Positions 1,260 through 31,915 of a stretch of DNA of 48,541 nucleotides are shown here, one piece after another. Made by a program: the position numbers and the translations under genes. This DNA comes from Methanobacteriota archaeon (GTDB lineage: Archaea > Hydrothermarchaeota > Hydrothermarchaeia > Hydrothermarchaeales > BMS3B), in the NCBI GenBank assembly GCA_013152685.1, contig JAADFX010000130.1, forward strand, positions 13,913 to 62,453, read 5' to 3'. The notes under the pieces are model-generated. The model was not told where the DNA came from and ran no database searches. It saw only the letters and a list, made by a program, of their open reading frames with translations. Each line of letters opens with the position of its first letter. Position 1 is the stretch's first letter.

Positions 1260-1293
1260 ACTCCTACTCTTCCTCCAGAAGGTAATAAACCTT

Positions 1294-2040: not shown

Positions 2041-2156
2041 GCAGCACCCTCGCTTCGAGGGCTAAAAAGCTTTGCGCACACACAAAATTTATATACCGCA
2101 TCCTGTATTACTTTTTACTTAAAACATAATACTAAATATGAGGAGGTGTGTTACAG

Positions 2157-2789: not shown

Positions 2790-3068
2790 TTGGAGCGCAG
2801 GTACGCTGCAGCGCTGGGTGTGGTCTTCCTGGTGGCGGTGCTCGCGCCCTTCCTGGCGTCCCCCAACCCCGACGGCCTGGAGAAGACTGCGGAGAAGTTT
2901 GAAAGCGCCCGTGGTATTGATTTTCACCTCCTCCCCTCCCCCTTCCCCGACTACACAGTGCCGGGCATGCCGGGCGCCGCCTCCGAGGTTGCCGCCATGC
3001 TGATAGGCACCGCCCTGGTGTTTGTGCTTGGCCTAGGAGTTGCACGGGCTCTGACGAAGGCGGGATAG
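2790..3068 (+). CDS. PDGLE-domain small membrane protein (CbiN-like accessory component)
   Basis: Signal/TM segment followed by the literal PDGLEKT motif and a C-terminal TM helix. It sits between cbiM and cbiO. Confidence 0.7.
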   Translation: MERRYAAALGVVFLVAVLAPFLASPNPDGLEKTAEKFESARGIDFHLLPSPFPDYTVPGMPGAASEVAAMLIGTALVFVLGLGVARALTKAG

Positions 3069-3914
3069 ATGCACATCATCGAAACTCAGAAGCTCTGCTA
3101 CAGCTACCCCGATGGAACCGCGGCGCTGAGCAATGTGGACTTCCTGGTGCATAGAAGCGAGGCTGTAGCCCTGCTGGGAGCCAACGGCGCGGGTAAGACC
3201 ACTCTGCTGAAGCACCTGAACGGCCTGCTCACCCCGACCTCTGGTAAGGTGCTTGTCGCCGGAGAGGAGGTCACAAAGGGGAACCTGATGTGGGTGCGCA
3301 GGCTGGTGGGGCTGGTGTTCCAGAACCCGGATGAGCAGCTCTTTGCGCCGAGCGTGGCTGAGGACGTGGCCTTCGGGCCGAGAAACCTGGGGCTGAGCGA
3401 GGAGGTTGTGCAGCACCGCGTGGAGGAGGCGCTGCGCATAGTCGGCATGGAGGGCTACGAGGAGAAGGCGCCCCACAACCTGAGCTACGGGGAGAAGAAG
3501 CGCGTCGCCATCGCGGGCGTGCTCGCCATGGAGCCCCAGGTCCTGGTGCTGGACGAGCCCACCTCCGGCCTGGATCCCGCGGGAGCTGAGGAGCTCATCT
3601 CACTGCTCCAGAATCTGCGCAGGCTGGGGCTGAGCATAGTGGTCGCCACCCACGACGTGGACCTCCTGCCGGAGCTGGCTGAGAGGGTGTACCTCCTCCA
3701 CAGGGGCAGCGTTGTCGCCGAGGGAGGCCTCAGGGAGGTGTTCACCGGCGTGGTTGCAGAGTCGCCGGGCAGGTACAGGCTGCGCCTGCCCTACGTGACA
3801 CGGCTACTGCAGAGGCTGCGGGAGATGGGCTTCCAGGTGGAGCTGAAGCTCACCGTGGAGGAGGCGGCAGAGGAGGTGGCAAGGCACCTTGGAGCAGGAG
3901 ATATTCGAGGTTGA
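3069..3914 (+). CDS. cbiO: ECF transporter ATPase (CbiO/EcfA)
   Basis: Walker A GANGAGKTT, ABC signature LSYGEKKRV, Walker B VLVLDEPTSGLD and H-loop ATHD. Confidence 0.9.
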   Translation: MHIIETQKLCYSYPDGTAALSNVDFLVHRSEAVALLGANGAGKTTLLKHLNGLLTPTSGKVLVAGEEVTKGNLMWVRRLVGLVFQNPDEQLFAPSVAEDVAFGPRNLGLSEEVVQHRVEEALRIVGMEGYEEKAPHNLSYGEKKRVAIAGVLAMEPQVLVLDEPTSGLDPAGAEELISLLQNLRRLGLSIVVATHDVDLLPELAERVYLLHRGSVVAEGGLREVFTGVVAESPGRYRLRLPYVTRLLQRLREMGFQVELKLTVEEAAEEVARHLGAGDIRG

Positions 3915-10583: not shown

Positions 10584-11774
10584 CTATGGCAGCACTCCGG
10601 CACGCCTAATTATCCCCAGCATCTCCAGGCTGAAGGCCGAAGCCGAGAGCAGGAGCAGAAGGCCGCCCACCATGGAGACGGCGCTCTGGGACAGGTACAT
10701 CCCCAGGGCGAGCAGCACAACACCCGCATTGTAGGCGTAGAAAATCCAGCGAGAGCGCTCCGCGGAGAAGAGCTCCTTGAAGGAGGAGGGCGCCCTCTCC
10801 CGCTCCCTGGGCAGGATCCGCGCCCAAGCAAGCGTCGGGATCACGTGGTACAGCCCCCCGATTACCGTCTGGCCGACAAAGCCCAGGGCGGCCAGGTGGG
10901 CGTGGACTGAGGAGAGCCCCGCCTCAGGAAAGGCTGCCTGTACCAGGCCCAGGAGGAGAACCAGCAGCAGGTAGCCCAGGGCAGCCAGAAAGAACCTGGA
11001 CTCCACGGGCTCTGGCTTGAAGCTCATCCTGGTGGGCGCCGTGTAGCTCTTTACCATGTCGTAGGTGAAGAGGGCGGCTGCTGAGAGGAGGACCGCGCCG
11101 GAGAGGAGGAGAAGCGCCTCAGAGAGCCCGAAGCCGAGCACCATCCCCGCCGCCGAGATGAGGGTGAGGTAGAACACGTAGTCCACCCAGCGCCGGTTGT
11201 ATATGTCCTTGACCACCAGCATGGGGAGCATCCAGGACATGGCGCCGAAGATTATCAGGGTCACCCCGCCCACCAGGGAGAGGTGCACATGGGAAGGGCG
11301 GTAGCCGTAGAGGGCGGGGTTCAGGAGGATCAAAAACCCAAGCGTCGCCCCGAGGCTAAGAAGGACGCTGGCTGCCGAGTAGAACTTGAAGGCATAGTTT
11401 TCCCCCCTGCGCTCCGCGATGGTCGCCAGGATGTTGTAGGTGAAGAGGTAGAAGCACACCAGCAGGAGCAGTGCCCCAGCCGCCGCCACCAGGCGGTGGT
11501 GGGGGTAGCTCAGCGAAAACACCACCAGGCCGGAGTTGAAAAGCCAGAAACTCGCCGAGGCGGCGCGCTTGCTGTGGAGCTCAGCGCCGGTGAGGGTGGG
11601 AACCTGCTGGTACATGGTGGCAATTATAACGCCGCAGACGAACCCCACCAGGGCGAGGTGCACGTGCACAGGCGTGGGAACCGAGAGGCCGGCCAATCCG
11701 GCTAACCCGAGGAGGAGCGCCACAACAAAATACACCAGCGCCGCTGCCAGAAACCGCAGTATTACGGCCGACAT
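10584..11774 (-). CDS. Polytopic (about 12 TM) membrane protein with thrice-repeated H-x-H-L...P-x-L motif; function unknown, possibly haem/metal-binding
   Basis: The 396-aa ORF carries repeats PVHVHLALVGFVCGVIIATMYQQVPTL, PSHVHLSLVGGVTLIIFGAMSWMLPML and SVHAHLAALGFVGQTVIGGLYHVIPTL about 125-135 aa apart. It is co-oriented 200 nt downstream of the HAO-like gene. The CDS is confident; the function is not. Confidence 0.6.
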   Translation of the reverse strand: MSAVILRFLAAALVYFVVALLLGLAGLAGLSVPTPVHVHLALVGFVCGVIIATMYQQVPTLTGAELHSKRAASASFWLFNSGLVVFSLSYPHHRLVAAAGALLLLVCFYLFTYNILATIAERRGENYAFKFYSAASVLLSLGATLGFLILLNPALYGYRPSHVHLSLVGGVTLIIFGAMSWMLPMLVVKDIYNRRWVDYVFYLTLISAAGMVLGFGLSEALLLLSGAVLLSAAALFTYDMVKSYTAPTRMSFKPEPVESRFFLAALGYLLLVLLLGLVQAAFPEAGLSSVHAHLAALGFVGQTVIGGLYHVIPTLAWARILPRERERAPSSFKELFSAERSRWIFYAYNAGVVLLALGMYLSQSAVSMVGGLLLLLSASAFSLEMLGIIRRAGVLP

Positions 11775-11969: not shown

Positions 11970-13460
11970 TCAGGGCTTCCTCCTTCTCCTGAGCAGCAGC
12001 GCATACCCTGCCACCGGCAGCAGCGCAAGGGCAGCCACTGACGTGGGACCGCACACGCCCTTCTGCTTCTCCAGCTTGGCAACGCGCTCCTCGAGCTCCT
12101 TCTTCTCCCGCTCCATCTCGAGCCACTCTTCCATCATGTTGAGCTTGTCCATCAGCGCATCCACTGCACCGTTCCAGTGGGTCCAGTCGGGCCCCATCAT
12201 GCTGGCGCCCATCCTCCACCTTCTGCCGTCGTGGTGCCAGATGTAGTAGTACATGATCTCCGGAATCTCGTCTATCGGGTTGGACTTGTCTATGAGTCCC
12301 TCCTCGTAGGCGGCGTTGAGGAGCTGCTCCGTGTACTCGTACACCCTGTTGTAGTCCTCCACCACCTTGTCGAAGCTCTCGAAGTAGCCGTCAACCCAGT
12401 CGCTGGCGTGGCACACCCTGCACACCTTCTTCATCTCTGCCCTGCCCCGCTTTGCCTGCTCCAAATCGGGCTTCTGCTCTCCCAGGGGCACCTTGCTGGC
12501 GTCGTCCCACTGGGGCGTCGACTTCTTGGGCTGAAGCTCCCAGTAGAGCCTGGCTCCAACGTCGTGGGTGCTCTCAACCACTCCGCCAAAGCCGGACATG
12601 TGGCAGGTGGCGCAGGTGGGTGCCGCTATGTCCTCGGGACCCCACTGACCAGGGGGCACGTCCCAGTTCCAGTCTTCGCCGCTGCTCGCGTAGATGTTGC
12701 CGTGCTTGCTCTCCTCGTAGATCTCTATCTGCGGATGGTCAGGGCCGAGATGGCACTGGCCGCAGGTCTCGGGCTTCCTCGCTTCGGCTATGCTGAACCT
12801 GTGGCGAGTGTGGCAGGCGGAGCAGGTTCCCATGCTGCCGTCGGGGTTGATCCTGCCTATGCCATTGTTGGGCCAGCCGTCCACCAGATTGCCGTTCTTT
12901 GATATCACGTAGCTTCCGTGGCACTCCAGGCAGCCCAGCACCTGGTTCTCCTGGTGGTAGTTCTCGTCATCCAGGAGGCCGATGCGCTTCAGGGCACCGC
13001 TGTCCGGGAACAGCGGCGTGAGCTGCCCCCTTATGAAGTCCCTGGGGTTGTTCTCAATGGCGGTCTCCAGCTTCAGCGGGTCCTTGCCCTGCTTCACCAT
13101 CTCCCTGTACCAGGGCTTCAGCGGCCCTATGAAGGCTGCCCAGGCGTGCTTGCTCCTTGAAAACTCCGCAACCTGCTTTGGATGACAGCTCTCGCAGTAG
13201 CGCGGTGATACCACTGCCGTGACCCTGTAGCCCATGTGCTCAAAGCCGGAGGGGTCGTCATCCTTGGCGAGGTGGCAAACATAACACTTCACTCCCACCT
13301 TGCTGTGCTTACTCTCCTCCCACTGCTTCACTATCCCTGGGGTTACGGTGTCGTGACAGCTCAGACAGGGCGCCCCTGGCTCTCTGAATTCCTGTGCGTT
13401 AGCTGTACTGAGCAACATCGCTGCAGCTATCGCAAAAATTAAGAGATGCTTTAACCTCAT
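11970..13460 (-). CDS. hao: HAO-family (hydroxylamine oxidoreductase-like) octahaem c-type cytochrome with CGP-CTERM-like anchor
   Basis: Signal peptide MRLKHLLIFAIAAAMLLSTANA. Eight CxxCH sites are present: CLSCH, CYVCH, CESCH, CLECH, CSACH, CGQCH, CATCH and CRVCH. HAO/HDH-like blocks include VKQWEESKHSKVGVKCYVCH and YIWHHDGRRWRMGASMMGPDWTHWNG. The C-terminus has a coiled coil followed by KGVCGPTSVAALALLPVAGYALLLRRRRKP. Confidence 0.85.
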   Translation of the reverse strand: MRLKHLLIFAIAAAMLLSTANAQEFREPGAPCLSCHDTVTPGIVKQWEESKHSKVGVKCYVCHLAKDDDPSGFEHMGYRVTAVVSPRYCESCHPKQVAEFSRSKHAWAAFIGPLKPWYREMVKQGKDPLKLETAIENNPRDFIRGQLTPLFPDSGALKRIGLLDDENYHQENQVLGCLECHGSYVISKNGNLVDGWPNNGIGRINPDGSMGTCSACHTRHRFSIAEARKPETCGQCHLGPDHPQIEIYEESKHGNIYASSGEDWNWDVPPGQWGPEDIAAPTCATCHMSGFGGVVESTHDVGARLYWELQPKKSTPQWDDASKVPLGEQKPDLEQAKRGRAEMKKVCRVCHASDWVDGYFESFDKVVEDYNRVYEYTEQLLNAAYEEGLIDKSNPIDEIPEIMYYYIWHHDGRRWRMGASMMGPDWTHWNGAVDALMDKLNMMEEWLEMEREKKELEERVAKLEKQKGVCGPTSVAALALLPVAGYALLLRRRRKP

Positions 13461-13503
13461 ATTCTCACCCAGTTAACAATCTCCCACTCATATATTAAAA
13501 AGG

Positions 13504-13544
13504 TTTTTTTAAAAAGTGATTTAAATAAAGATTGTAGTGTTAAA
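13504..13544 (-). promoter_or_regulatory. hao upstream composite element TTTAACACTA-N19-TTTTTAAAAAAA (gene orientation)
   Basis: Read directly. The plus strand is TTTTTTTAAAAA-GTGATTTAAATAAAGATTG-TAGTGTTAAA. N19 contains the TATA-like TATTTAAAT. The proximal end lies 43 nt from the hao ATG. The same outer blocks occur with the same spacing upstream of napA. Confidence 0.55.
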
Positions 13545-13551
13545 ATTTAGT

Positions 13552-17015: not shown

Positions 17016-19493
17016 CTACGCCTTGACCACCTTTATCTTGCACACCTTGTAGTCAGGCTCCGCCGCCTTTGACCAGCTCTCGGGCACGTCTATGGTGAGG
17101 TCGTTGATCAGCTTGGTCTCATCGAACCAGGGCACGAAGACCATGCCCGGCTGAGCGCGCTCTGTAACCCAGGCGGGGAGGACGATGCTGCCGCGCGGTG
17201 ATATCAGCTTTATCTTCTCACCGCTCTTGACCCCCAGCTTCCTGGCATCGCTCGGGTGTATCTCCACGTAGGCGGCCGGGTTCAGCTCACGCAGCAGGCG
17301 CACGCGCATGGTCATTGTTCCGGTGTGCCAGTGCTCTATAACCCTGCCGGTGTTCAGCACGAAGGGATAGCTGGCGTCCGGCATCTCGTAGTCCAGCTTC
17401 GCCGCGAGAGCGCGGATTACCGCCTTGTCCTTGGTGTTCTTGAGCTTGTGGCCTCCGTAGTAGTTTATCGGCCCTGGATAGCCGTGCTCCTCCATGTGCT
17501 GGTCGTACAGCGTGACGTAGCCCGTGGCGTACCTCTTCTTGTCCCTTCCGAACACCCTTATCGCGTACTCCCTGGAGATGTAGCGCTTGTTGCTTCCGCG
17601 GTTGTCAAACTCGGTGCTCGGGCAGGGCCACTGGACGCCGCCCGCGTGGGCCTTGAGCTTCTCGTAGGTGGCGCCGTAGAGGTCAACATCCTGTCCCCTG
17701 GTGAGCACCCTGTACTCGTTCCACGCGGCCTCCTCTGGCGTCATCTCGCCCTTCTTAACCCTGGGGTCGTCGTAGAAGCCCAGGCCGTAGACCTCTATGG
17801 TGTCCAGCACCTTGAGCGGGTCCTGCCTGTCCCTGATGGCATACTTAACCTTCCTTCCCAGCTTCTGGGCTATCCTCCTGGCCACCTCATTTATCTGCCA
17901 GAAGTCGGGCTTTGCCTCTCCCGGCGGGTCCACCAGCTTGTTTATAAACTGGCTCCTCCTGTCTGTCTGCCCCATGACGCCCTCCTTCTCCACCCACATG
18001 GCGCTGGGCAGTATGACCGTCGCCACCTCAGTGGTCTTGTTGGGGTAGATGTCGCTCACCACAGTGAAGGCCTTCATCATGGCCTCCGCATAGCGGTCGC
18101 AGTTGGGCAGGCTCTGCGCCGGGTTGGTGGTGTTTATCCATATCGCCTTTATCTCGCCCTTCTCCAGGCGCATGAACATGTTAACCGCCGGGCCCGTGGG
18201 CTTCTTGGGCATCTGCTCAACGGGCACGCCCCAGACCTCTGCCACCTCCTGCCTGTGCTTGGGATTCGCCACCGCCCTGTGCCCCGGCAGGATGTGGGTG
18301 AGTCCGCCCTGCTCGCGAGTGCCGCCGCAGGCGTTGGGCTGCCCCGTGAGGCTGAGGGAGTCACAGCCGGGCTTGCCTATCTTGCCTGTGAGCAGGTGCA
18401 GGTTGTGAACCTGGCAGTTGAGCTCCACGCCCTGGGTGCGCTGGTTCAAACCCATGGTCCACATGCTGAGGGCAGTGTAGCCGCGCCGCCCAAACCACCG
18501 CGCCGCCAGGCGTATGTCCTCAGCGGGCACCCCGGTTATGTCCTCCACCTTCTCCGGGGTGTAGTCCTTGAGGAACTCCCTGAAGCCGTCCAGGTCCATC
18601 TCCTCGCCGGCCGGACCAAGGCCCACCCTGAAGGTGCAGTACTTGAGGTGCTCGTAGTCCACCATGTCCTCCTCTATTATCACATACGCCATGGCGTTCA
18701 GCAGGTACATGTCGGTACCCGGCTTGAACTTCAGGTGGAGGTCCGCATACCTCGCTGTCGGAGTTGTGCGCGGGTCGGCCACTATAACCCTCACCCTGTC
18801 CGGATAGGCGCTCTTCCTGTCTATCACCCTGCGGAAGAGCATCGGGTGCTGCTCCGCCATGTTTGAGCCTATGATGAAGATGGTGTCCGCCAGGTCTATG
18901 TCGTCGTAGCTTCCCGCAGGCTCATCTGCGCCGAAGGTGTTGAGGTAGCCTCCAACCGCAGAAGCCATGCACAGCCTGGGGTTGCCCTCCACGTTGGCGG
19001 TGCCAATAAGCCCCTTGAAGAGCTTGTTGGCGGCGTAGGCTTCCTGGGTTGTGTTCTGTCCAGAGCCGTACCACGCGACGCTGTCGGGACCGTACTCCTT
19101 GATGTACTTGGCAAAGGTGTCGGCAATCAGCTCCAGCGCCTCGTCCCAGCTGACCTCCTTGTAGCTTCCATCCGGCTGACGCACCATGGGCTTGGTCAGC
19201 CTCTCCTTCCCGCCGCCACCGTACATTATGTGGGGCAGCGAGTACCCCTTCATGCAGAGTCTGCCGAAGTTTATCGGGGAATCCGCATCGCCCTTTACTG
19301 CCACCACCTTACCGTCACGCACGCCCACAAGTACAGTGCAGCCGGTGCCGCAGAACCTGCACTGGGCGCGCCCGAAGGTTATTCCCCCATCTCCCGGCGC
19401 CGCCATCGCGGGGGCACTCATGCCGGCTGCAAGCATCGCTGCAGTGGCGGCTGAAGCCTTTATGAACTCACGTCTGCTCATGCTTATTCCCAT
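17016..19493 (-). CDS. napA: Periplasmic-type nitrate reductase catalytic subunit NapA (Mo-bisPGD, Tat-exported)
   Basis: GGAGGTGA lies 5 nt before ATG 19493. Tat signal SRREFIKASAATAAMLAAGMSAPAMA. The N-terminal [4Fe-4S] motif is CRFCGTGCTVLV...C. The Mo-ligand region NPRLCMASAVGGYLNTFG resembles NapA. The napG/H/D context supports the call. Confidence 0.9.
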   Translation of the reverse strand: MGISMSRREFIKASAATAAMLAAGMSAPAMAAPGDGGITFGRAQCRFCGTGCTVLVGVRDGKVVAVKGDADSPINFGRLCMKGYSLPHIMYGGGGKERLTKPMVRQPDGSYKEVSWDEALELIADTFAKYIKEYGPDSVAWYGSGQNTTQEAYAANKLFKGLIGTANVEGNPRLCMASAVGGYLNTFGADEPAGSYDDIDLADTIFIIGSNMAEQHPMLFRRVIDRKSAYPDRVRVIVADPRTTPTARYADLHLKFKPGTDMYLLNAMAYVIIEEDMVDYEHLKYCTFRVGLGPAGEEMDLDGFREFLKDYTPEKVEDITGVPAEDIRLAARWFGRRGYTALSMWTMGLNQRTQGVELNCQVHNLHLLTGKIGKPGCDSLSLTGQPNACGGTREQGGLTHILPGHRAVANPKHRQEVAEVWGVPVEQMPKKPTGPAVNMFMRLEKGEIKAIWINTTNPAQSLPNCDRYAEAMMKAFTVVSDIYPNKTTEVATVILPSAMWVEKEGVMGQTDRRSQFINKLVDPPGEAKPDFWQINEVARRIAQKLGRKVKYAIRDRQDPLKVLDTIEVYGLGFYDDPRVKKGEMTPEEAAWNEYRVLTRGQDVDLYGATYEKLKAHAGGVQWPCPSTEFDNRGSNKRYISREYAIRVFGRDKKRYATGYVTLYDQHMEEHGYPGPINYYGGHKLKNTKDKAVIRALAAKLDYEMPDASYPFVLNTGRVIEHWHTGTMTMRVRLLRELNPAAYVEIHPSDARKLGVKSGEKIKLISPRGSIVLPAWVTERAQPGMVFVPWFDETKLINDLTIDVPESWSKAAEPDYKVCKIKVVKA

Positions 19494-19546
19494 ACTTTCA
19501 CCTCCGCCTCTGTATAATATTCATGGATTTTTAGGTTAATAAAACC

Positions 19547-19587
19547 TTTTTTTAAAAATTTTATTTATATCCCTCCATAGTGTTAAA
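19547..19587 (-). promoter_or_regulatory. napA upstream composite element TTTAACACTA-N19-TTTTTAAAAAAA (gene orientation)
   Basis: The plus strand is TTTTTTTAAAAA-TTTTATTTATATCCCTCCA-TAGTGTTAAA. N19 holds the TATA-like ATATAAATA. The proximal end lies 53 nt from the napA ATG. The outer blocks and the spacing are identical to the hao element. Confidence 0.55.
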
Positions 19588-19658
19588 TTAATTTTTATAT
19601 ACCCCCTCTTCGTGAACCTTTACGATTTAATTGGATATTTAATTTCAAATGATTATAT

Positions 19659-20318
19659 TTAAATGTTACCTTCCAGCGACAGCATGGTCATGAAGGCGCG
19701 CTTCCCCGTGTCGGAGATGTAGTAGTGGCGGTTTTCATCCTGGGCTATCAGCCCCGCCTGCTTTAGCACCCTCAGGTGAAAGCCGAGCTTTGCGGGCTCA
19801 TCGATGTCCAGGTAGTTCATTATGTCGGTAAAGCGCGCCTTCCCCTTTGCGTGGAGGTACTCTATTATCCTGCGGCGTATCGGGTTTGAGAGGGACTTGA
19901 GCACGTCCTTCCCGGTCTCCCTGACGCCCGCCTTCTCCCGCACCGCCTCCTCTATCCTGGTCTCCTCCAGCAGGCGGAGGATCTTGTTCCTGATCTCCTC
20001 CACCTTGAAGGGCTTGAGGATGTAGTCGCTGGCTCCCATCTTCATCGCCCTCACGGCGCTGTCCACTGTGCCAAAGGCGGTGATAATTATGACCTTTGTG
20101 AGAGGGGAGTACTTCTTGACGTTCCTCAGCACCTCCATCCCGTCGGCTCCCGGCATCACCAGGTCGGTGATGACCAGGTCAAACTTCTGCTTTTTTATCA
20201 TGTTTATGGCCTTGACCCCGTCCTCTGCGATTTTGGGGGAGTAGCCCTTCTTCTCCAGCAGAATCTTCAATCCCTCTCTGAGCTTCGGGTCATCCTCCAC
20301 TATCAGTATCTCCTGCAT
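19659..20318 (-). CDS. Response regulator: REC domain plus ArsR-type winged-helix output
   Basis: The start [13 protein letters not shown] lies at 20318. The phospho-acceptor context is DLVITDLVMPGADG. The C-terminal LSNPIRRRIIEYLHAKGKARFTDIM...KLGFHLRVLKQAGLI is an ArsR/SmtB-like wHTH. Confidence 0.82.
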   Translation of the reverse strand: MQEILIVEDDPKLREGLKILLEKKGYSPKIAEDGVKAINMIKKQKFDLVITDLVMPGADGMEVLRNVKKYSPLTKVIIITAFGTVDSAVRAMKMGASDYILKPFKVEEIRNKILRLLEETRIEEAVREKAGVRETGKDVLKSLSNPIRRRIIEYLHAKGKARFTDIMNYLDIDEPAKLGFHLRVLKQAGLIAQDENRHYYISDTGKRAFMTMLSLEGNI

Positions 20319-21753
20319 CTGACTCACCCGGCAGATATATTCTGAAGGTGGTGCCCCTGCCCACCTCGCTCTCAACCTCTATCTCTCCTCCGTGCTTCTC
20401 AATTATGCTGTAGGTGATGTAGAGGCCGAGCCCCGTGCCCTTGCCCACCTCCTTCGTGGTGAAGAAGGGGTCAAAAATCTTCCCGAGGTGCTCCTCGGGG
20501 ATTCCCACACCGGTGTCCCTGATTTCCACCACCACCCTGCCATCACTCCTGTAGGTGCGTATCGTCAGCTTGCCGCCTTCCTTCATCGCGTCAATTGCAT
20601 TGGTGGCTATGTTTATGAAGGCATCCAGCAGCTTTGAGGAGTCTCCCTTTATCTCCGGAAGCCTCTCGTCCAGGTCCAGCTCAAGCTTTATGTTTTTGTA
20701 CTGTAATTGGGGTTTGAGGATATTTAACATTTTCTTGATTATTTCGTTAACCTGGGCAACCTCATTTTTGAACTCCCGCTGCCTTGAGAAGTCGAGCAGC
20801 CCCTGAACCACCTTAGATGCGAGGGACGCCTCCTCCTCTATAATCTCCAGCACCTTCCTGGTCTCCTCATCCTTCACCTCCTCCCTGTGGATCTGGGAGT
20901 AGAGAATTATGTTCGCCAGGGGGTTGTTTATCTGATGAGCTATCCCGGCGGCCAGCTTGCCCACCGTGGCCATCTTCTCACTCTGTATCACCTGGGCCTC
21001 CTTGTTCTTGAGCTCCTCAACCATGCTGTTAAAAACCCTTGCGAGCTCTCCGAGCTCGTCTTCCTTGTCCACATCTACCCTGGCGGAGTAGTCCCGCTTT
21101 GAGAGTTTTATGGCAGCCTCCTTCACCTTGTTGAGGGGGGTGATCACCACGAAGCGCATTATCCCGAGTATTGCGAGCATTATTCCCAGGGAGAGGAGGA
21201 AGCCGTAGAAGATGAGCTGCCTCCTCGTCCTCTCCAGGGACGCCATTACCTCGCTCACGGGGATTTCCACCACAAGAGCGCCGCGCAGGTCGCCCTCCCG
21301 GTACCCCTGGTCCACGTGGCACTTCAGGCAGGGCTTCTCTATGTACAGGGGGACGGCGTACTCGTAGAAATCCGAGCTTACGGCGTACCTCTCCCCCTCA
21401 CCCCCCTGCATAAACTCCATCAGCACCCTCCTCTCAAACTCGTCGGCGGGGTAGTTATCCGGGTCCCTGGGCTTGAAGGTCACCAGCTTTATCTTGTAGT
21501 CGTACATCTCATTGGAAAGCTCGGAGAGCTCGTAGGTGAGCTCTGCCGGCACAGGCATCACCCTCTCCCTGTTTTCCGCCGCCCACAGCCTCACCAGCAG
21601 GATCTGGTCTGTAACACTCTTTGCCTGCTGCCGCAGCTGCTCCATGATGTTCCTCTCGTGCACCTCGCTCATGTAGTAGAAAATTCCCTGAACTGAGAGG
21701 AACACTATTATGCCCACGGCAAGCATCACCTTTGTGCCAACGCTCGCCTTCAT
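20290..21753 (-). CDS. Sensor histidine kinase with extracytoplasmic haem-c (CxxCH, DUF3365/Tll0287-like) sensor, HAMP, HisKA and HATPase domains
   Basis: TM1 is followed by an exported domain of about 150 aa ending [31 protein letters not shown] (CLKCH at 21316-21330). TM2 and HAMP follow. The H-box is [12 protein letters not shown]. The N, G1 and G2 boxes are [16 protein letters not shown] and GKGTGLGL. Confidence 0.85.
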
Positions 21754-22745
21754 TCGCCCACCTCGGGGGGTACCACGCGCACTGGAAGGCGCTCCGGGAG
21801 ATGGCGCAGATCCAGGACCACTATTCCGCCGTCGTAGTCTGCAACATACGCACTGCCCTCCGCCACCGCTATGCCGTAGGCGTTTCCGGGGGTGTCGTAC
21901 TCCGCCACCGGCTCAAGCCTGCCGTCCTCGTGGATCCTGAGCAGCGCCACGCCGCTGTTCGCGAGGGTTACCAGCAGGTAGTCCCTGTAGCTGGCTAGCC
22001 GCAGGGCAAAGCCCGGAAGCTGGAGGTTCTGCTGGTGAACAAGCCTGCCGTCCGGAGATATCCTGTACACATCCACCCCGGCATCTGAGCTAGCCACGTA
22101 CGCGTGGGAGCCCCTGACCAGGACGTCGTGGGCAACACTGCTCGTGGGAACAAAGCCCAGGAACTCCAGGGAGCCGTTCTTCCGGAGCCTGGCCACGTAC
22201 AGCCGCATTGTGAAGTCGGCCAGGTACAGCGTCCTGTCCCTTACGCTCACGCCCTTTGGGTAGCTGTAGTTGCCGGGCTTGTAGAACCTCTGGCTGAGGG
22301 TGGCAAGGTCAAGAACCACCAGGCCAGAGGCCACACAGGCGAGGAAGGCACTGTTGCCGGAGATAACAATCTTCTGGGCGGTGTGGTTCAGCACCACCTC
22401 CGCCAGGAGCTGCGGCTGGGCGGGGGTGCTCACGTCCAGCAGGTAAAGCTTCCCCAGGGTGTCGCTGACGTAGAGCGTCCTCCCGGACACCGCCAGGGTC
22501 TGGGCCTCGCCGGGGGTTCTGAAGCCCCCTATCCTGCGCAGGCTTCCCGCCCCTATTGAGAAGATGTCCAGCCCCCAGGGTGAGACCGCATATAAGTACT
22601 CGTCGTACACCAGAACATCGTAGTAGTAGTGGGGCTTTTGAGGACTGATGTCCGGCTGATATCCCTGATTCTCGCCGGACACGCATCCTGCAAGCACCAG
22701 CAGCAGTGGAATCGCCACCCAGTAGAGGGTCCTATGTCCACACAT
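21750..22745 (-). CDS. LVIVD-repeat beta-propeller lipoprotein
   Basis: Lipobox LLLVLAGC. The repeated units are G.a..v.v.g..aYva....Gl.v.D.s (YLLDVS, LVVLDLA, GVDVYRI, GIVVLDL). The ATGA overlap with the kinase gene couples the two. A start at 22772 is also possible. Confidence 0.7.
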   Translation of the reverse strand: MCGHRTLYWVAIPLLLVLAGCVSGENQGYQPDISPQKPHYYYDVLVYDEYLYAVSPWGLDIFSIGAGSLRRIGGFRTPGEAQTLAVSGRTLYVSDTLGKLYLLDVSTPAQPQLLAEVVLNHTAQKIVISGNSAFLACVASGLVVLDLATLSQRFYKPGNYSYPKGVSVRDRTLYLADFTMRLYVARLRKNGSLEFLGFVPTSSVAHDVLVRGSHAYVASSDAGVDVYRISPDGRLVHQQNLQLPGFALRLASYRDYLLVTLANSGVALLRIHEDGRLEPVAEYDTPGNAYGIAVAEGSAYVADYDGGIVVLDLRHLPERLPVRVVPPEVGE

Positions 22746-22893
22746 CTTCTCCTCTAAGGCCACAGCGCACATCTGGTAAATTTTACTTAAATTTTTACTT
22801 ATTTATCTTTTAATATAAAATTCCCTTTATATAAAATTTCTTTTAAAATAAAGTTTTAAGGACTGGAGGTTCAAAAGATACTACGGTGATGGT

Positions 22894-23034
22894 ATGCTTG
22901 TGGGAAACACCGAAATCCTGCTGGTGATTGCGCTGGTGGTCCTCCTCTTCGGAGCCGGGAAGATTCCGGAGCTCGCCCGCAGCCTCGGGAGGGCCAGGGT
23001 TGAGTTCAGACGCGGCATGGAAGAGGAGAAGTAG
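22894..23034 (+). CDS. tatA: Twin-arginine translocase subunit TatA/E (46 aa, not in the ORF track)
   Basis: Translation gives MLVGNTEILLVIALVVLLFGAGKIPELARSLGRARVEFRRGMEEEK*. This is the TatA TM helix, the F-G hinge and an amphipathic helix. GGTGAT lies just upstream. Confidence 0.78.
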   Translation: MLVGNTEILLVIALVVLLFGAGKIPELARSLGRARVEFRRGMEEEK

Positions 23035-23067
23035 ACTCCCGCCACCTGGAGCGGACGATGGGGGAAA

Positions 23068-23715
23068 ATGAGCAAAATACTGATAGTGGATGACGACAGG
23101 CACACGACGGGGGTTCTGGAAAAAGCCCTCCGCAGGAGCGGATTCCAGGTCATCACCGCCGAGAGCGCCACGGAGGGTATAAACAGGCTCGTGGAGGAGC
23201 AGCCCGACCTGGTGCTCCTGGACCTCGTGCTCCCTGACATGCGCGGACTGCAGGCCCTGGATGAGATAAGCAGGCTCTCCCCGGAGACAAAGGTCATAAT
23301 AATAAGCGCCTTCCCCTCCATAGGCGACGTGGTGGAGGCCATGAAGCTGGGAGCGAGCGATGTGCTGGTGAAGCCCTTCAACGTGGACGAGCTGGTGAGC
23401 ATAGTAAAGAAGACCCTGGAGGAGGCCCGGCTGGAGCGCAGGATTGAGGCCAAGATAAGCGACACGGTGATAAAGGCGCTCTCAAACCCCATCCGCAAGA
23501 GGATAGCCTTCTACCTGCTGCATGCCGGTGTCAGGAGGTTCTCCGAGATAGCCAGGAGCACAGAGATGGACGACCCCTCCAAGCTCAGCTTTCACCTGCG
23601 AGTCCTGATAGACGCCGGGATAGTGTGCAAGAACAGGGCTGGGCAGTACTCCCTCACAGGCGACGGCAGGGCGATAGTGGAGAGGCTCCTGCTCAGGCTG
23701 GAGGAGGAGGTCTGA
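23068..23715 (+). CDS. Response regulator: REC domain plus ArsR-type winged-helix output (paralog of 19659-20318)
   Basis: MSKILIVDDD..., DLVLLDLVLPDMRG, and C-terminal LSNPIRKRIAFYLLHAGVRRFSEIA...KLSFHLRVLIDAGIV. The architecture and motifs match the other regulator. Confidence 0.85.
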   Translation: MSKILIVDDDRHTTGVLEKALRRSGFQVITAESATEGINRLVEEQPDLVLLDLVLPDMRGLQALDEISRLSPETKVIIISAFPSIGDVVEAMKLGASDVLVKPFNVDELVSIVKKTLEEARLERRIEAKISDTVIKALSNPIRKRIAFYLLHAGVRRFSEIARSTEMDDPSKLSFHLRVLIDAGIVCKNRAGQYSLTGDGRAIVERLLLRLEEEV

Positions 23716-28162: not shown

Positions 28163-29155
28163 ATGCAGCCAAAGATTCTGGTTGTTGATGACGAGGAGCT
28201 AATACGCCTCAGTCTCAGGAAGCTTCTCGAAAAGCACGGCTATCCCGTGGAGGTCGCCAGCTCCGCCTCCGAGGCTCTGGAAAAGCTGAAGGCGGACGGG
28301 TTCCGCATAGTCATCACCGACATAATGATGCCAGACATGGACGGGATAGAGCTCCTCAGGAAGATAAAGGAGCAGGACAGGGGCATTTACGTCATAATGA
28401 TCACCGCCTACGCCAGCCTGGAGCGCGCCATTGCCAGCCTAAAGTTCGGCGCCAGCGACTTCATACAGAAGCCCTACGAGAACAGGGAGATCATCGAGGC
28501 GGTTAAGAAGGCCGTCGAGACCCTCGAGGAGGAGAGCAGGGGGCCCGAGCTCGCCGTGTCGGTGAAGCCTGCCGTTATAGACGCCTTCCGCAGGACATGC
28601 CATGAGAGCGTCGCCGAACTTGCGGAGGCTGTCAGGAAGATAACCGGCATAGACACGAGCATAAAAATTGAGGGGCCCGTGGTGGAGGAGATAGAGAACT
28701 TCCCCAACCTGGTGGGAGGGGAGGGGATCGCCATGGTGGGCTCCTACGCCAGCCTCTACGGCGCCCTCAGCGGGAGCGCCACCCTGCTCTTCCCCATAGA
28801 GGATGCGATTCGCTTCATTGAGCTCCTCTCCGACAAGAAGGTCGACTACGCCGACTTTCCCAACCCCGACGACAGGGAGGTGCTCAAGGAGGTGGGGAGC
28901 ATAATCTCCGAGGACCACACCAGGAGGCTGAGGGAGCTCGCCGGTATAGACGTGAAGATTACCCCGGCAAGCTTCGTGGACCTGGTGTCGGGCAACTTTG
29001 TCTCCTTCCTGGAGCTGCGCACCGGCAGGAAGAGGCAGTACTACTTCGCCCACAAGCTGCTCTTTCAGATAGGGGGCGCCAAGCAGATACTCGGCTACCT
29101 GCTGCTGATTTTCGACCTGAGGAACATAGGGGTGCTTAACAGCCGCTTTCAGTAG
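28163..29155 (+). CDS. Response-regulator receiver protein with C-terminal domain of about 190 aa of uncertain family (weakly CheC/CheX-like)
   Basis: The REC domain shows ILVVDDEE, IVITDIMMPDMDG and KP. The C-terminal half has two pseudo-repeats with an EVG-x-I-type helix (LKEVGSIISE). It lacks a clear CheC E-x2-N motif. Confidence 0.65.
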   Translation: MQPKILVVDDEELIRLSLRKLLEKHGYPVEVASSASEALEKLKADGFRIVITDIMMPDMDGIELLRKIKEQDRGIYVIMITAYASLERAIASLKFGASDFIQKPYENREIIEAVKKAVETLEEESRGPELAVSVKPAVIDAFRRTCHESVAELAEAVRKITGIDTSIKIEGPVVEEIENFPNLVGGEGIAMVGSYASLYGALSGSATLLFPIEDAIRFIELLSDKKVDYADFPNPDDREVLKEVGSIISEDHTRRLRELAGIDVKITPASFVDLVSGNFVSFLELRTGRKRQYYFAHKLLFQIGGAKQILGYLLLIFDLRNIGVLNSRFQ

Positions 29156-29287
29156 ATAACCATCAACTTTTTATAGTACCCCCCGTTTAAAAATAGTTGA
29201 AGGGCAGCGCAGGGTTTTGGTCGGATTTCAGGGGTCTCCGGCACGCCGCCGCCCGCACACTGTGTGAGGCAGCAGGCGGATATAAAA

Positions 29288-31915
29288 ATGCTTCAAGGCG
29301 GAAAAATGGATGAGGACCTCAAGAAGGCCATAGAGTACCACAAAAGGGGAGAGTACGGGAAGGCGAGGGAGTACTACCTGAGGGCGGTGGGGAAGGACCC
29401 CGCCAATCCTAGGCTCCGGGTTCTCCTGGGGAACACCTTCTACTACGACGGACACGTGGAGGAGGGCATCGCCCAGTACAGGGAGGCGATAAGGATTGAC
29501 CCTGAGTACTGCGTCGCCTACTTCAACCTGGCGATTGCCCTGGAGCACAAGGGCGACGTTGAGGGAGCGATTGAGAACTACAGGAAGGCGATAGAGAAGA
29601 ACCCGGAGTATGCGGAGGCCTACGCAAACCTGGGCGCGCTGCTGAAGGAGTGCGGCGAGGTAGACGAGGCGATTACCTGCCTGAGGAAGGCGCTGGAGAT
29701 TGACAAGAGCCTAGAGGCGCCCCGCAAGAAGCTGCAGCAGATCCTGAATGAGGTCCACGAGCAGGTGAGGGTGAGGGAGAGGATAAGGGAGGCGGAGGAG
29801 TACATAAAGGACGGGGACATCTTCGAAGAGGTGGGGGACCTGGACAGGGCCATCGAGTGCTACAGGAACTCAATAAGGGTGTATCCCAGCATAGTGGGCC
29901 ACTTTCTCCTGGGTCTGGCCCTGGAAAAAAAGGGAGACATGAAGGGGGCGACGGAGAACTACAGGGCGCTCCTCGAGATGGACGTCTCCAACATCAGGGA
30001 CTTCACCGCCGACACCCTTAACATCCTGGGGAAGCGCCTCGGAAAGCTCAGGTTCACCGACGAGGACCTGGTGAAGATGCTCAAGAAGCTCCACTCCCAG
30101 GTCAAGGAGCGGAAGCTCTTCATCTCCATGATAGGCTACGTGATAAAGGAGTCGGTGCAGACCGCGGAGGACTACATAAGGCTCGGCTCGGAGTGCGAGC
30201 AGAAGGGCGACCTCCACAGCGCCGTGGACTACTACCGACGCGCCGTGGAGCTGGAGCCCTTCTCGCCCATGCCCTACTACATCCTCGGCCTGGCGCTGGA
30301 GCGCCTGGGCAGGAAGCAGGAGGCTATCCGCAACTACCAGCGCGCCATGGAGCTGGACATAGGCTCCCTGAACCCCGAGGCGTCCCAGAAGCTCGCCGAG
30401 GCTCTTGCCAGGCAGATAGGGAACGTGTACGTGAGCTTCCTCGACTCGAGACAGCTGCTGATGGAGTTCAAGGACTACGCCAGGAGCACCGGAGAGGCGA
30501 GCTTTGAGACCTTCCTGCGGCGCAAGATAACGGGCGAGGCGGAGAGCAAGATTGAGGAGGGCTACCTGCTGGACAGGGAGGGCACCCTGGACGTGGCGAT
30601 TCAGAGGTACCAGGAGGCCGTGGAGATAGACCCCAACAACCTGGTTGCCCACTACATCCTCGGCTTGGCTCTGGAGAGCAAGGGCGACTACGAGGGTGCC
30701 ATCCGCAGGTACCGGGAGAGCGAGAAGGTTGACCTGGACAGGGCTCCCAGGGAGATCTCCAGGAGGGTGATAGAAATCCTCAACAAGTACCTCACAAAGA
30801 CCACAAAGGACGGACACAGGGTGGGCACCATACTGATGAGGTACTTTGAGATCATCAGCCAGAACCCCGAGAAGATGACCCAGCTGCTGAGCTACATAGA
30901 GGACATAAAGCTCGACACCCTCTCCAAGATCCTCAAAACCTATGTGGAGAAGGCGATGAAGGAGGGTGGCGGCGGGGTAATAATACGCGACATGGAGGAC
31001 TTTGCGGAAAACGTGGAGGAGAAGCTCAAGCTGAAGAGGTCAGAGGAGCTGAGCCAGGTCAGGGTGCGGCTCGCCTGGAAGTACAAGACGGGCAGGGCGA
31101 TCAGGTGCGCCGCCATGTCCGCGGGAGGGGAGGTTATAGCCGGAGGCTCTGAAAACGGCAAGATATACTTCATCAACCAGAAGGGTGAGCTCATCTGGAA
31201 GAAGAAGAGGGAGATAATGATAGTGGACATCGACGTCTCCCCGGAGGGGGAGTACATCGCCGTGGGGCTGCAGAGCGGTGTGGTGGAGCTCTTCGACTCC
31301 GCCGGCGGGCTGGTGTGGAAGAGGGACTTCAGCAAGCACGGCGTCACCTGCCTGGCGGTCTCGGGGGGAGCGGAGTACACCACCGTCGCCACCAGGGACT
31401 GCAAGCTCATCACCCTGGACAGGTTCGGGGAGGTGGTGTGGGAGCGCTCCGTTGACGGGTACTGCACGAGGGTGGACATATCCCACAGCGGGAGGGAGAT
31501 TATAGCCTGCTCCGACGTCGGATTCATCTACTTCATCAGGAATGAGGGGCTGGTGATAGTGGACAGCATCCACGCCAAGGACACCCCCTACTCCGTCGCC
31601 GTATCCCCGGAGGGCAGGTTCTACGCCTCAGGCTCCACCTCCGGGAAGGTGTACCTGATGGACAGGGAGAAGCAGGTGCTCTGGAAGCAGGAGACCATGA
31701 GCCCCATCTACGGGCTGGCGGTGAGCAGGGATGGGAAGAACGTGGTGGCGGGGACCTCCGCGGGGGTGGTGTACCTCTACGACGAGAAGGGGGACCTCCT
31801 GTGGAAGTACCCCACGGGGGTAAACATCTGGGACACCGACATCTCAGAGGACGGCACCAGGACCATAGCCGGCTGCGGTCTTGTCTTCGGTGACATATAC
31901 CACTTCATCACCTGA
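29288..31915 (+). CDS. Large TPR-repeat protein with C-terminal 7-bladed PQQ/WD-like beta-propeller
   Basis: The N-terminal two thirds carry repeated A-x3-Y-x2-A-(I/L/V)-x2-(D/N)P TPR signatures (for example YREAIRIDPEY, YRKAIEKNPEY, YQEAVEIDPNN). The C-terminus has seven repeats of the type G.vy.....G..lWk. The start is uncertain (GTG 29264, ATG 29288 or ATG 29306). Confidence 0.78.
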   Translation: MLQGGKMDEDLKKAIEYHKRGEYGKAREYYLRAVGKDPANPRLRVLLGNTFYYDGHVEEGIAQYREAIRIDPEYCVAYFNLAIALEHKGDVEGAIENYRKAIEKNPEYAEAYANLGALLKECGEVDEAITCLRKALEIDKSLEAPRKKLQQILNEVHEQVRVRERIREAEEYIKDGDIFEEVGDLDRAIECYRNSIRVYPSIVGHFLLGLALEKKGDMKGATENYRALLEMDVSNIRDFTADTLNILGKRLGKLRFTDEDLVKMLKKLHSQVKERKLFISMIGYVIKESVQTAEDYIRLGSECEQKGDLHSAVDYYRRAVELEPFSPMPYYILGLALERLGRKQEAIRNYQRAMELDIGSLNPEASQKLAEALARQIGNVYVSFLDSRQLLMEFKDYARSTGEASFETFLRRKITGEAESKIEEGYLLDREGTLDVAIQRYQEAVEIDPNNLVAHYILGLALESKGDYEGAIRRYRESEKVDLDRAPREISRRVIEILNKYLTKTTKDGHRVGTILMRYFEIISQNPEKMTQLLSYIEDIKLDTLSKILKTYVEKAMKEGGGGVIIRDMEDFAENVEEKLKLKRSEELSQVRVRLAWKYKTGRAIRCAAMSAGGEVIAGGSENGKIYFINQKGELIWKKKREIMIVDIDVSPEGEYIAVGLQSGVVELFDSAGGLVWKRDFSKHGVTCLAVSGGAEYTTVATRDCKLITLDRFGEVVWERSVDGYCTRVDISHSGREIIACSDVGFIYFIRNEGLVIVDSIHAKDTPYSVAVSPEGRFYASGSTSGKVYLMDREKQVLWKQETMSPIYGLAVSRDGKNVVAGTSAGVVYLYDEKGDLLWKYPTGVNIWDTDISEDGTRTIAGCGLVFGDIYHFIT

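Follow-up and report, generated by a model that had tools for sequence, protein, structure and literature searches.

The window analyzed here is a stretch of 48,541 nucleotides (nt) from an archaeal assembly (GCA_013152685.1, contig JAADFX010000130.1, positions 13,913 to 62,453), and all positions below are counted from its first letter unless another contig is named. Directly upstream of napA it harbors a module of three genes, encoding a lipoprotein with LVIVD repeats, a membrane-bound histidine kinase with a predicted haem-c sensor domain, and a response regulator (RR1) in which a receiver domain (REC) is joined to an ArsR-type winged helix-turn-helix (wHTH). We consider it probable, at roughly 60%, that the kinase is an archaeal haem-c sensor of nitric oxide (NO), or of redox state, which through RR1 would control the nap-hao genes for nitrate ammonification. 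A second regulator of the same architecture (RR2) is encoded on the opposite strand, after tatA. The genes and sites in question are the following, with the evidence for each in brackets.

21750..22745, minus strand: LVIVD-repeat lipoprotein, 331-340 amino acids (longest open reading frame (ORF) to 22772; probable start M10 at 22745)
20290..21753, minus strand: sensor histidine kinase, 487 amino acids, with the order first transmembrane segment (TM1)-sCache_haem-second transmembrane segment (TM2)-HAMP-HisKA-HATPase_c (Pfam, hydropathy, AlphaFold model with a predicted local distance difference test score (pLDDT) of 88)
21220..21669, minus strand: extracytoplasmic sCache_haem (Tll0287/DUF3365) domain, kinase residues 29-178 (PF11845 and sensor profile)
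21316..21330, minus strand: CLKCH haem-c attachment motif, C142, C145 and H146 (invariant in the 60 homologues aligned)
20935..20937, minus strand: codon of H273, the predicted phospho-accepting His, in AHQINNPL (HisKA match and motif position)
19659..20318, minus strand: RR1, 219 amino acids, REC (D52, K103) and C-terminal ArsR-type winged helix, likely the cognate regulator of the kinase (Pfam)
17016..19493, minus strand: napA, Tat-exported molybdoenzyme, probable first regulated gene (Pfam)
11970..13460, minus strand: Hao-family octahaem cytochrome with 8 CXXCH, probable second regulated gene (PF13447 and CXXCH count)
22894..23034, plus strand: tatA, 46 amino acids (TatA/E profile PF02416, 47 bits against a cut-off of 21, E 1.5e-12)
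23068..23715, plus strand: RR2, paralogous REC and ArsR-type wHTH regulator, same architecture as RR1 (Pfam)

A predicted haem-c sensor kinase

An earlier note on this DNA had likened the extracytoplasmic part of the kinase to the DUF3365/Tll0287-type haem-c sensor fold, and three approaches agreed with this. The Tll0287-like family PF11845 matched kinase residues 34-165 (E 2.6e-20; 73.7 bits against a cut-off of 24.1), a profile built from 20 sensor domains matched Tll0287 (PDB 5B82; E 1.8e-9) with the two CXXCH in register, and AlphaFold placed the CXXCH in a helix (140-149) between strands 129-137 (beta3) and 156-165 (beta4), in a domain where pLDDT is mostly above 90. It is this insertion of a CXXCH helix between beta3 and beta4 that defines the family renamed sCache_haem by Deshpande et al. 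(bioRxiv 10.64898/2026.02.01.703092). The profile of 20 domains was needed, the sensor domain as a single query against the PDB having retrieved 5B82 only at E 0.29. The domains of GSU0582 and GSU0935 (PDB 3B47 and 3B42) gave a marginal match to the same profile, again with the CXXCH superposed.

In the hydropathy plot, hydrophobic segments at about 9-28 and about 179-201 (TM2) bracket the sensor domain, as expected of an extracytoplasmic position. The domain had been described as ending in PCLKCH; the CLKCH indeed lies exactly at 21316-21330 (residues 142-146), but it does not end the domain, as one further beta-strand (156-165) separates it from TM2. C142 and C145 are the sole Cys of the kinase. 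Among the 60 homologues aligned, W57 and G158 are as invariant as C142, C145 and H146, and besides the CXXCH about 15 further sensor positions are invariant or nearly so. Sequence and model thus support a haem-c domain of the DUF3365/Tll0287 type with a predicted covalent haem. Such a sensor would need cytochrome-c maturation, as the earlier note had pointed out, and the genome encodes four PF01578 CcmC/CcmF-type proteins together with several multihaem cytochromes.

The cytoplasmic part consists of HAMP (203-249), HisKA (265-326; 55 bits) and HATPase_c (370-476; 102 bits), and carries the hallmarks of a HisKA-type kinase, namely AH273QINNPL, DTGVGI and GTGLGL; its PDB matches were ZraS and CckA, at E of about 1e-38. 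The domain searches that the note had proposed therefore all returned matches, for Tll0287/DUF3365, HAMP and HisKA as well as for the REC and ArsR-type wHTH of the regulators. Neither the P-box domain of NarX/NarQ-type sensors nor a NarL-type regulator was found among the Pfam and NCBIfam matches, and no NCBIfam equivalog matched the kinase, RR1, RR2 or the propeller.

With its sensor fused to HAMP-HisKA-HATPase and the axial Cys absent, the kinase falls into the signaling subclass ("Cluster 2") of sCache_haem, the latter assignment following from the CXXCH pair being its only Cys. M66, which lies near the axial-ligand position of Tll0287, was considered as a distal Met ligand and dropped, since orthologues have M, T, L, K or A there. 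No conserved Met or His was apparent at that position among the orthologues and the 60 homologues, the near-invariant residue being P69. The axial-Cys-less signaling member from Pseudomonas azotoformans binds NO with a k_off of 6e-4 s-1 and forms no stable O2 complex, while the stand-alone Cys/His member that was tested resembled a redox protein (bioRxiv 10.64898/2026.02.01.703092). By analogy, we infer that NO is the best-supported candidate signal for the window kinase. The NO- or redox-responsive role that the earlier note suggested fits these data and also the repeated placement of such kinases beside nap, Hao-like and NrfA-like genes, described below.

According to the same preprint, the domain occurs in one archaeal RefSeq genome, and its transfer to archaea has been "exceedingly limited" (bioRxiv 10.64898/2026.02.01.703092). 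We found it in 14 out of 38 Hydrothermarchaeota species genomes, among them 10 of the 11 in the family to which the window belongs; these have between one and four copies each, and the window's own genome has three. The sensor family is thus established and expanded in one archaeal lineage and not a sporadic import. The third copy in this genome (contig C104, 11910-13310) belongs to a kinase that is 27% identical to the window kinase and has no LVIVD gene; it is adjoined by a receiver-only protein and further kinase genes, and is closest to clusters of bacterial type (37% identity), suggesting that it has a separate origin.

A conserved lipoprotein, kinase and regulator module

The three genes of the module follow each other on the minus strand from 22772 to 19659, in the order LVIVD gene, kinase and RR1, and their ends overlap. 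Both overlaps had been read correctly at the outset: the TGA stop of the LVIVD gene and the ATG of the kinase share the four letters ATGA, and the true start of RR1 (MQEILIV, at 20318) lies 29 nt inside the kinase gene, whose stop is at 20290. Coordinates and Pfam matches likewise bore out the placement of tatA between the two regulators and of napA next to the module.

The lipoprotein matched PF08309 with 60.4 bits (cut-off 20.2) and has a lipobox, LAGC, at residues 27-30, the Cys of which is near-invariant among the 13 homologues aligned. AlphaFold returned 28 strands in seven blades (pLDDT 87; predicted template modelling score 0.83). Repeats, propeller model and lipobox are all those of a PF08309 LVIVD-repeat surface propeller, and the protein is accordingly predicted to be a seven-bladed beta-propeller tethered to the outer face of the membrane. 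A Foldseek search with the model returned generic propellers only (YbhE, WD40 domains and BamB, at TM-scores of up to 0.74), with no functional lead among them, and a literature search for LVIVD and for DUF7347, a domain matched by both regulators, turned up no more than a 2004 description of the repeat and one passing mention.

The succession of LVIVD gene, haem-sensor kinase and REC-ArsR regulator was found in two paralogous sets, at about 12 genome loci and at 11 out of 11 metagenome loci. These sets are orthologous across the phylum, and we refer to the nap/hao-linked triads as group A and to the triads of the type found on contig C43 of the same genome as group B. Between the groups the kinases are 48%, the regulators about 50% and the propellers 33% identical, and for all three genes the two groups are each other's closest relatives, while the next kinase cluster among 1.8 billion representatives reaches only about 34-35% identity when compared over the full length, and 40% when only part of the sequence is aligned. 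The module therefore appears to have been duplicated as a unit. Both LVIVD genes of the window's genome are linked to a kinase. A word-indexed homologue search returned only nine close LVIVD relatives, and it was an alignment scan of metagenomes that separated the kinase-linked subfamily: out of 79 LVIVD loci, all 11 of the group A/B type had a haem kinase and a REC-ArsR gene directly downstream, against none of the 68 other LVIVD relatives. The gene ends overlap at all triad loci whose gene ends were read.

At the window's locus, the order of RR2 and tatA on one side and LVIVD gene, kinase, RR1 and napA to hao on the other recurs in three more assemblies of Hydrothermarchaeota, whose kinases are 89% (locus L004), 83% (L005) and 60% (a further assembly) identical to the window kinase, and is therefore not due to chance. 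Among the syntenic relatives RR1 is 94-97% identical, the propeller only 63-70%. In the assembly with 60% kinase identity, the neighbors of RR2 are moeA, an fmdE-like gene and the genes of a molybdate-type ABC transporter.

The second triad of the same genome (C43, 16445-21989) has the same order of genes. On its 3' side follow a thioredoxin-like gene (CRFC, PF13192) and the gene for a 647-amino-acid NrfA-family cytochrome (PF02335, E 9e-51) with seven CXXCH, one CLNCK and a C-terminal membrane anchor, which from its sequence is likely the organism's second nitrite reductase. Across the assemblies, enzymes related to nitrate or nitrite were found next to the modules as follows.

Group A, four assemblies: napA to hao downstream
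Group A, assembly G003: Hao-like gene directly downstream
Group B, assembly G007: second Hao-like octahaem cytochrome downstream
Assembly G035, another class: NrfA-like cytochrome downstream, then a large molybdoenzyme
Assembly G013: longer haem-sensor kinase and regulator directly upstream of hao-napA, LVIVD gene absent

At the G003 locus (L106; contig C104 of that assembly, 1100-3660) the RR1 orthologue is interrupted by an in-frame TAG, and the Hao-like gene next to it falls into two ORFs (144 and 393 amino acids); these disruptions reflect either decay of the module or assembly errors.

Turning to the regulators, RR1 and RR2 are 41% identical over their full length (E 1e-44). Their REC domains (PF00072; 113 and 103 bits, respectively) retain the residues for phosphorylation, i.e. 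E8-D9-D10, D52, the T of IIITA and K103 in RR1, and D8-D9-D10, D52, the S of IIISA and K103 in RR2. The output domain of RR1 matched HTH_5 (36.4 bits, cut-off 22), HTH_20 (35.4, cut-off 27) and DUF7347 (30.3, cut-off 27.6); that of RR2 matched DUF7347 (33.2 bits) and HTH_5 (30.7), and reached 22.8 bits with HTH_20, under the cut-off of 27. The sequence of RR1 is without any Cys and its input is a REC domain, and the protein is therefore ArsR-like in fold only and not a metal sensor of the ArsR/SmtB kind. No structure combining REC with ArsR was found in the PDB, where the matches were confined to REC. The kinase and REC cores are closest to the bacterial AtoS/ZraS and NtrC/AtoC types, a similarity in sequence that suggests that an NtrB/NtrC-type pair was imported and exchanged its sigma-54 output for an ArsR-type winged helix.

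The combination of REC and ArsR had been called an apparently uncommon class of archaeal regulator. This holds against a 2018 census of complete archaeal genomes, in which DNA-binding regulators were rare and the class is unlisted (PMC5847659), but not against current public data, where the family comprises at least 417 protein clusters at E <= 1e-10, with six full-length members in the window's genome. The named sources are mostly Hydrothermarchaeales, Methanoperedens and Nitrososphaerota. In Ca. Methanoperedens nitroreducens (locus L006, 8643-20061), two tandem modules of a Phosphonate-bd lipoprotein, an sCache_3-HAMP kinase and a REC-ArsR regulator of the same family (42-44% identity) sit between two Psr/Ttr-like molybdoenzyme operons, the downstream one of which has a Tat signal, an FeS subunit, NrfD and a TorD-like chaperone. 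These modules show the design of lipoprotein, kinase, REC-ArsR regulator and respiratory reductase to be recurrent, and REC-ArsR to be a recurring archaeal output beside respiratory reductase operons, in Hydrothermarchaeota as in Methanoperedens.

The earlier note had further proposed a branched circuit of one kinase and two regulators. In such a circuit the haem kinase would phosphorylate both RR1, for the nap-hao genes, and RR2, for tatA and the molybdenum-cofactor genes. In favor of it, no separate kinase gene lies near RR2, which retains D52 and K103. Clear orthologues of RR2 (79-88% identity) were found in this genus only, always beside a group A module (5 of 5 genomes), an RR2-like gene occupies the same position in the more distant L125 assembly, and the genes around RR2 are all needed for active NapA, namely tatA, moeA, an fmdE-like gene and a molybdate-type ABC transporter, the last in L125. 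The moeA promoter likewise has a T7A4 core. Helix alpha1 carries much of the partner specificity in two-component pairing, however, and in an alignment of 23 family members every regulator encoded beside a haem-sensor kinase has [LMI]-R-x-G-L in this helix (L-R-E-G-L in RR1), whereas RR2 has T-T-G-V-L; those beside sCache_3/GAF kinases have [IV]-C-x-x-L. RR2 is also set apart by a long branch of its own (length 1.5) in the tree of these 23 regulators, and in two out of three RR2 orthologues the conserved aromatic switch residue is replaced by Val (SDV and not SDY). As for the near-identical recognition helix that the note had stressed, the paralogy, the common architecture and both motifs stood, but KLxFHL[RK]xL is common to all 23 members, so that neither common operators nor shared targets of RR1 and RR2 could be deduced from it. 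Lastly, a further sCache_3-GAF kinase/regulator pair adjoins RR2 in relatives. On sequence the branched circuit is thus not favored, and we regard it as doubtful. RR2 is probably co-transcribed with tatA, from which it is separated by a 33-nt spacer with no AT-rich element, and this lineage-specific paralogue, located near molybdenum-cofactor genes, may control export and cofactor supply.

The pairs adjoining RR2, each an sCache_3-like-HAMP-GAF kinase and a REC-ArsR regulator, are located at L004 4428-7112 and L005 4849-7537. In the window's genome such an sCache_3-GAF kinase/REC-ArsR pair lies on another contig (C34, 2051-3570), and the true neighborhood of RR2 may have been broken by the assembly.

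Candidate control sites, a proposed mechanism and alternatives

The spacers with candidate sites include the following.

22773..22893, no strand assigned: divergent AT-rich promoter region of 121 nt between the LVIVD operon and tatA-RR2, with a palindrome at 22809-22852 and TTTTAAAA at 22841
19494..19658, minus strand: napA promoter region, with the rare 12-mer TTTTTTTAAAAA at 19547-19558 (plus strand)
13461..13551, minus strand: hao promoter region, with the 12-mer TTTTTTTAAAAA at 13504-13515

In the divergent spacer, a core of about 55 nt that includes the palindrome is near-invariant in relatives. Of the four copies of the 12-mer in the 1.8-Mb genome, one lies at the napA promoter and one at the hao promoter. 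In the relative with 60% kinase identity, the core and its GG/CC-TTTT flank have persisted at both of these promoters amid surroundings that diverge. Five of the 37 genomic copies of the shorter palindrome TTTTAAAA are distributed one apiece over the five AT-rich spacers of the locus, namely those of hao (13507), lipoprotein/napG (16990), napA (19550), the divergent region (22841) and moeA (23761). Five copies in this 11-kb stretch compare with 0.76 expected when normalized to AT-only 8-mers (Poisson tail of about 0.001).

The mechanism we propose, drawn in all its functional parts from sequence, predicted structure and gene context, is as follows. The archaeal Ccm system would attach haem c to C142 and C145, with H146 as proximal ligand and the sixth coordination position open or water-bound. 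NO from nitrate or nitrite reduction would bind this haem or, less likely, a redox change of the haem would be the signal. Passing through TM2 and HAMP to the HisKA/HATPase core, the signal would alter autophosphorylation of H273 and phosphotransfer to D52 of RR1. An RR1 dimer would bind AT-rich palindromes, the core of which is T(4-7)A(4-7), in the promoters of napA and hao and probably in that of its own operon as well. Expression of Nap, the nitrate reductase, and of the Hao-type octahaem cytochrome, a probable nitrite reductase, would be set in this way. The propeller lipoprotein would most likely dock on the sensor domain as a co-sensor or modulator.

Several observations weigh against this reading. 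NO binding is known from a single bacterial signaling member, in a preprint (bioRxiv 10.64898/2026.02.01.703092), and for the archaeal members haem attachment, ligand, phosphotransfer and DNA binding are all predictions. The Foldseek matches of the full-length kinase model mainly reflected the kinase core, being limited to kinase cores and a WalK model. The partner role of the LVIVD protein is derived from gene linkage, since the structural search gave only generic propellers. The link to enzymes that make or consume nitrite is frequent and not universal, as the group B modules of assemblies G001 and G010 have no adjoining cytochrome gene. Finally, the candidate operator is AT-rich and lies where an archaeal TATA box and B recognition element are expected, and may equally well be a promoter element instead of a regulator site, and two copies of TTTTTTTAAAAA lie elsewhere, at C13:16676 and C27:3970. 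One of these is upstream of a 476-amino-acid gene heading a likely chemotaxis operon, in which three downstream ORFs read as CheW-, CheY- and CheB-like from their translations only, the other upstream of an Lrp-like HTH gene; both may be further regulon members, or chance.

The signal could also be redox state throughout, with the haem c reporting the poise of the extracytoplasmic space or the electron chain and the module acting as a general respiratory switch for the adjacent reductases. The structurally related sensor domains of GSU0582/GSU0935 align with that of the window kinase, and the modules lie beside varied enzymes (Nap, Hao-like, NrfA-like, an unassigned 1135-amino-acid molybdoenzyme) or none. 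Furthermore, both sCache_haem proteins tested have ordinary oxidized and reduced c-type spectra, and the stand-alone members were proposed to be redox proteins (bioRxiv 10.64898/2026.02.01.703092). The tested member that is fused to signaling domains and, like the window kinase, lacks the axial Cys nevertheless behaved as a slow-off NO binder in that study (bioRxiv 10.64898/2026.02.01.703092), and nearly all neighboring enzymes use nitrate, nitrite or NO-related substrates, so that we hold a pure redox sensor to be unlikely. Less likely again is that the propeller is the primary sensor, for a ligand, a mineral surface or a partner protein, for instance the lipid-anchored complex of Hao or Nap, and the haem a secondary modulator or structural cofactor. 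The strict linkage and translational coupling of the propeller and kinase genes would fit this, as would the different lipoprotein (Phosphonate-bd) that precedes the Methanoperedens kinase/REC-ArsR pairs upstream of Psr-like molybdoenzyme operons. Yet the haem kinase and regulator of assembly G013 stand at hao-napA with no LVIVD gene, the CXXCH and the near-invariant sensor positions argue for selection on the haem domain as the sensor, and the propeller is the least conserved of the three products (63-70% as compared to 83-97% identity).

It is very improbable, lastly, that the neighborhood is coincidental and the module regulates itself or distant genes, with other factors controlling napA and hao. 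Each of these two genes does have an AT-rich promoter region of its own, and some group B modules have no respiratory neighbor. The adjacency to nap, Hao-like or NrfA-like genes was, however, found in five arrangements across genera, families and a second class, and a rare motif is common to the promoters of the locus. The NO-sensing, RR1-mediated control of nap-hao described above thus remains our preferred reading. It could be extended to a bolder scenario, which we put forward only tentatively and consider possible at less than even odds: the LVIVD protein would be an obligatory extracytoplasmic co-receptor docked on the haem-Cache domain, and the system, a three-component device, would have arisen by import of a bacterial NtrB/NtrC-type pair into the Hydrothermarchaeota, exchange of the sigma-54 output for an archaeal-compatible ArsR winged helix and recruitment of the surface propeller, the whole then being duplicated to serve separate nitrite-reducing cytochromes.

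Related systems and the surrounding locus

The closest likeness is to the Cache_haem-HAMP receptor of P. azotoformans, which also has two transmembrane segments, the second followed at once by HAMP, and a periplasm-facing Cache domain in which the CXXCH helix separates beta3 from beta4 and an axial Cys is lacking, and for which NO sensing was proposed (bioRxiv 10.64898/2026.02.01.703092, 10.64898/2026.05.25.727664). The window member differs from it in being archaeal, in its output, a complete HisKA kinase and not a docked Ser/Thr kinase, and in its partners, an obligatory gene for an LVIVD lipoprotein and a REC-ArsR regulator. In the same domain family, Tll0287 of Thermosynechococcus (PDB 5B82) occurs as a stand-alone protein with His/Cys ligation, for which a redox role was proposed, whereas the window kinase has no Cys for axial ligation; the Geobacter proteins GSU0582 and GSU0935 (PDB 3B47, 3B42), of the same family too, are chemoreceptors and not kinases.

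Other systems resemble the module in design. The enterobacterial NarX-NarL/NarQ-NarP systems likewise exert two-component control over a periplasmic nitrate reductase and a multihaem nitrite reductase, with two paralogous regulators, but NarX and NarQ sense nitrate and nitrite directly with a cofactor-free four-helix P-box domain, the regulators are of the NarL/FixJ type, and homology is limited to the kinase and REC cores. In TorT-TorS-TorR of Escherichia coli, an accessory protein, a membrane kinase and a regulator are encoded beside the operon of a Tat-exported molybdoenzyme, TorR being of the OmpR type. The likeness to the module, a comparison with TorT/TorS from general background, is restricted to this three-part design, as the accessory protein here is a beta-propeller and the kinase sensor has a predicted haem. 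The three-part design is also that of the Methanoperedens L006 modules, with a Phosphonate-bd substrate-binding protein as accessory and an sCache_3 kinase. In Bacillus and Staphylococcus, the Cache-type sensor of WalK is modulated by the membrane-anchored accessories YycH and YycI, encoded in the same operon. A WalK-YycH model was in fact the top Foldseek match of the full-length kinase model; accessory fold, absence of haem and a role in cell-wall physiology set that system apart. Finally, FilI-FilR1/FilR2 of Methanosaeta harundinacea and LtrK-LtrR of Methanococcoides burtonii are, as here, archaeal kinases with transcription-acting wHTH regulators, but their regulators have an N-terminal HTH and a C-terminal REC, and their kinases have no extracytoplasmic haem sensor (PMC5847659). 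The window system is consequently a new archaeal variant of a known sensor family, in which the strictly linked propeller partner and the archaeal-type output are new.

Very few two-component systems of archaea combine a known signal with a DNA-binding regulator and identified target promoters, and this module would be one of the few for which a signal and target genes are plausible. It is compact, conserved and amenable to heterologous tests, offering a soluble sensor domain, a kinase core, two regulators and short promoters. It also points to a function for LVIVD propellers; if the co-receptor reading is true, it would provide the first function of an LVIVD-repeat protein and, in archaea, the first NO-responsive switch of transcription that has a defined operator. 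The module furthermore suggests how archaea of the deep subsurface, where nitrate is scarce and NO a likely by-product, may switch on ammonification of nitrate and nitrite.

The host is an uncultured Candidatus Hydrothermarchaeota (Pyrohabitans-like) archaeon of the hot subsurface, whose nearest relatives are metagenome-assembled genomes of Hydrothermarchaeota including Ca. Pyrohabitans jungbluthii JdFR-16. Its assembly amounts to 1.8 Mb and is 96% complete, and the window lies on a 62-kb contig of it. A mis-binned bacterial contig was ruled out by the archaeal genes in the window, namely a Tfx C-terminal domain and FmdE (both from Pfam) and a dph2-like product (from its translation), and by synteny with a 620-kb contig of Ca. 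Pyrohabitans jungbluthii.

The start of napA lies 165 nt 3' of RR1, and the best NCBIfam match of its product is NapA, with 673 bits, under the equivalog cut-off of 904. It is followed by genes for a lipoprotein, NapG, NapH, NapD, an FrhB-like protein, the Hao-family octahaem cytochrome and a COX1/NnrS-like membrane protein. The last of these, 396 amino acids in length (10584-11774, minus strand), gave a partial COX1 match of 74.6 bits and a sub-threshold NnrS match, and could be an NO-related haem-copper-type membrane protein; a similar N-terminus heads an ORF on contig C101 (8513-9694). Elsewhere in the window, at 28163-29155 on the plus strand, a protein of 330 amino acids has an N-terminal REC and a 200-amino-acid C-terminal part without assignment, which may be another uncharacterized archaeal output. 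It is followed, at 29264-31915 on the same strand, by the gene for an 883-amino-acid protein with TPR and beta-propeller parts.

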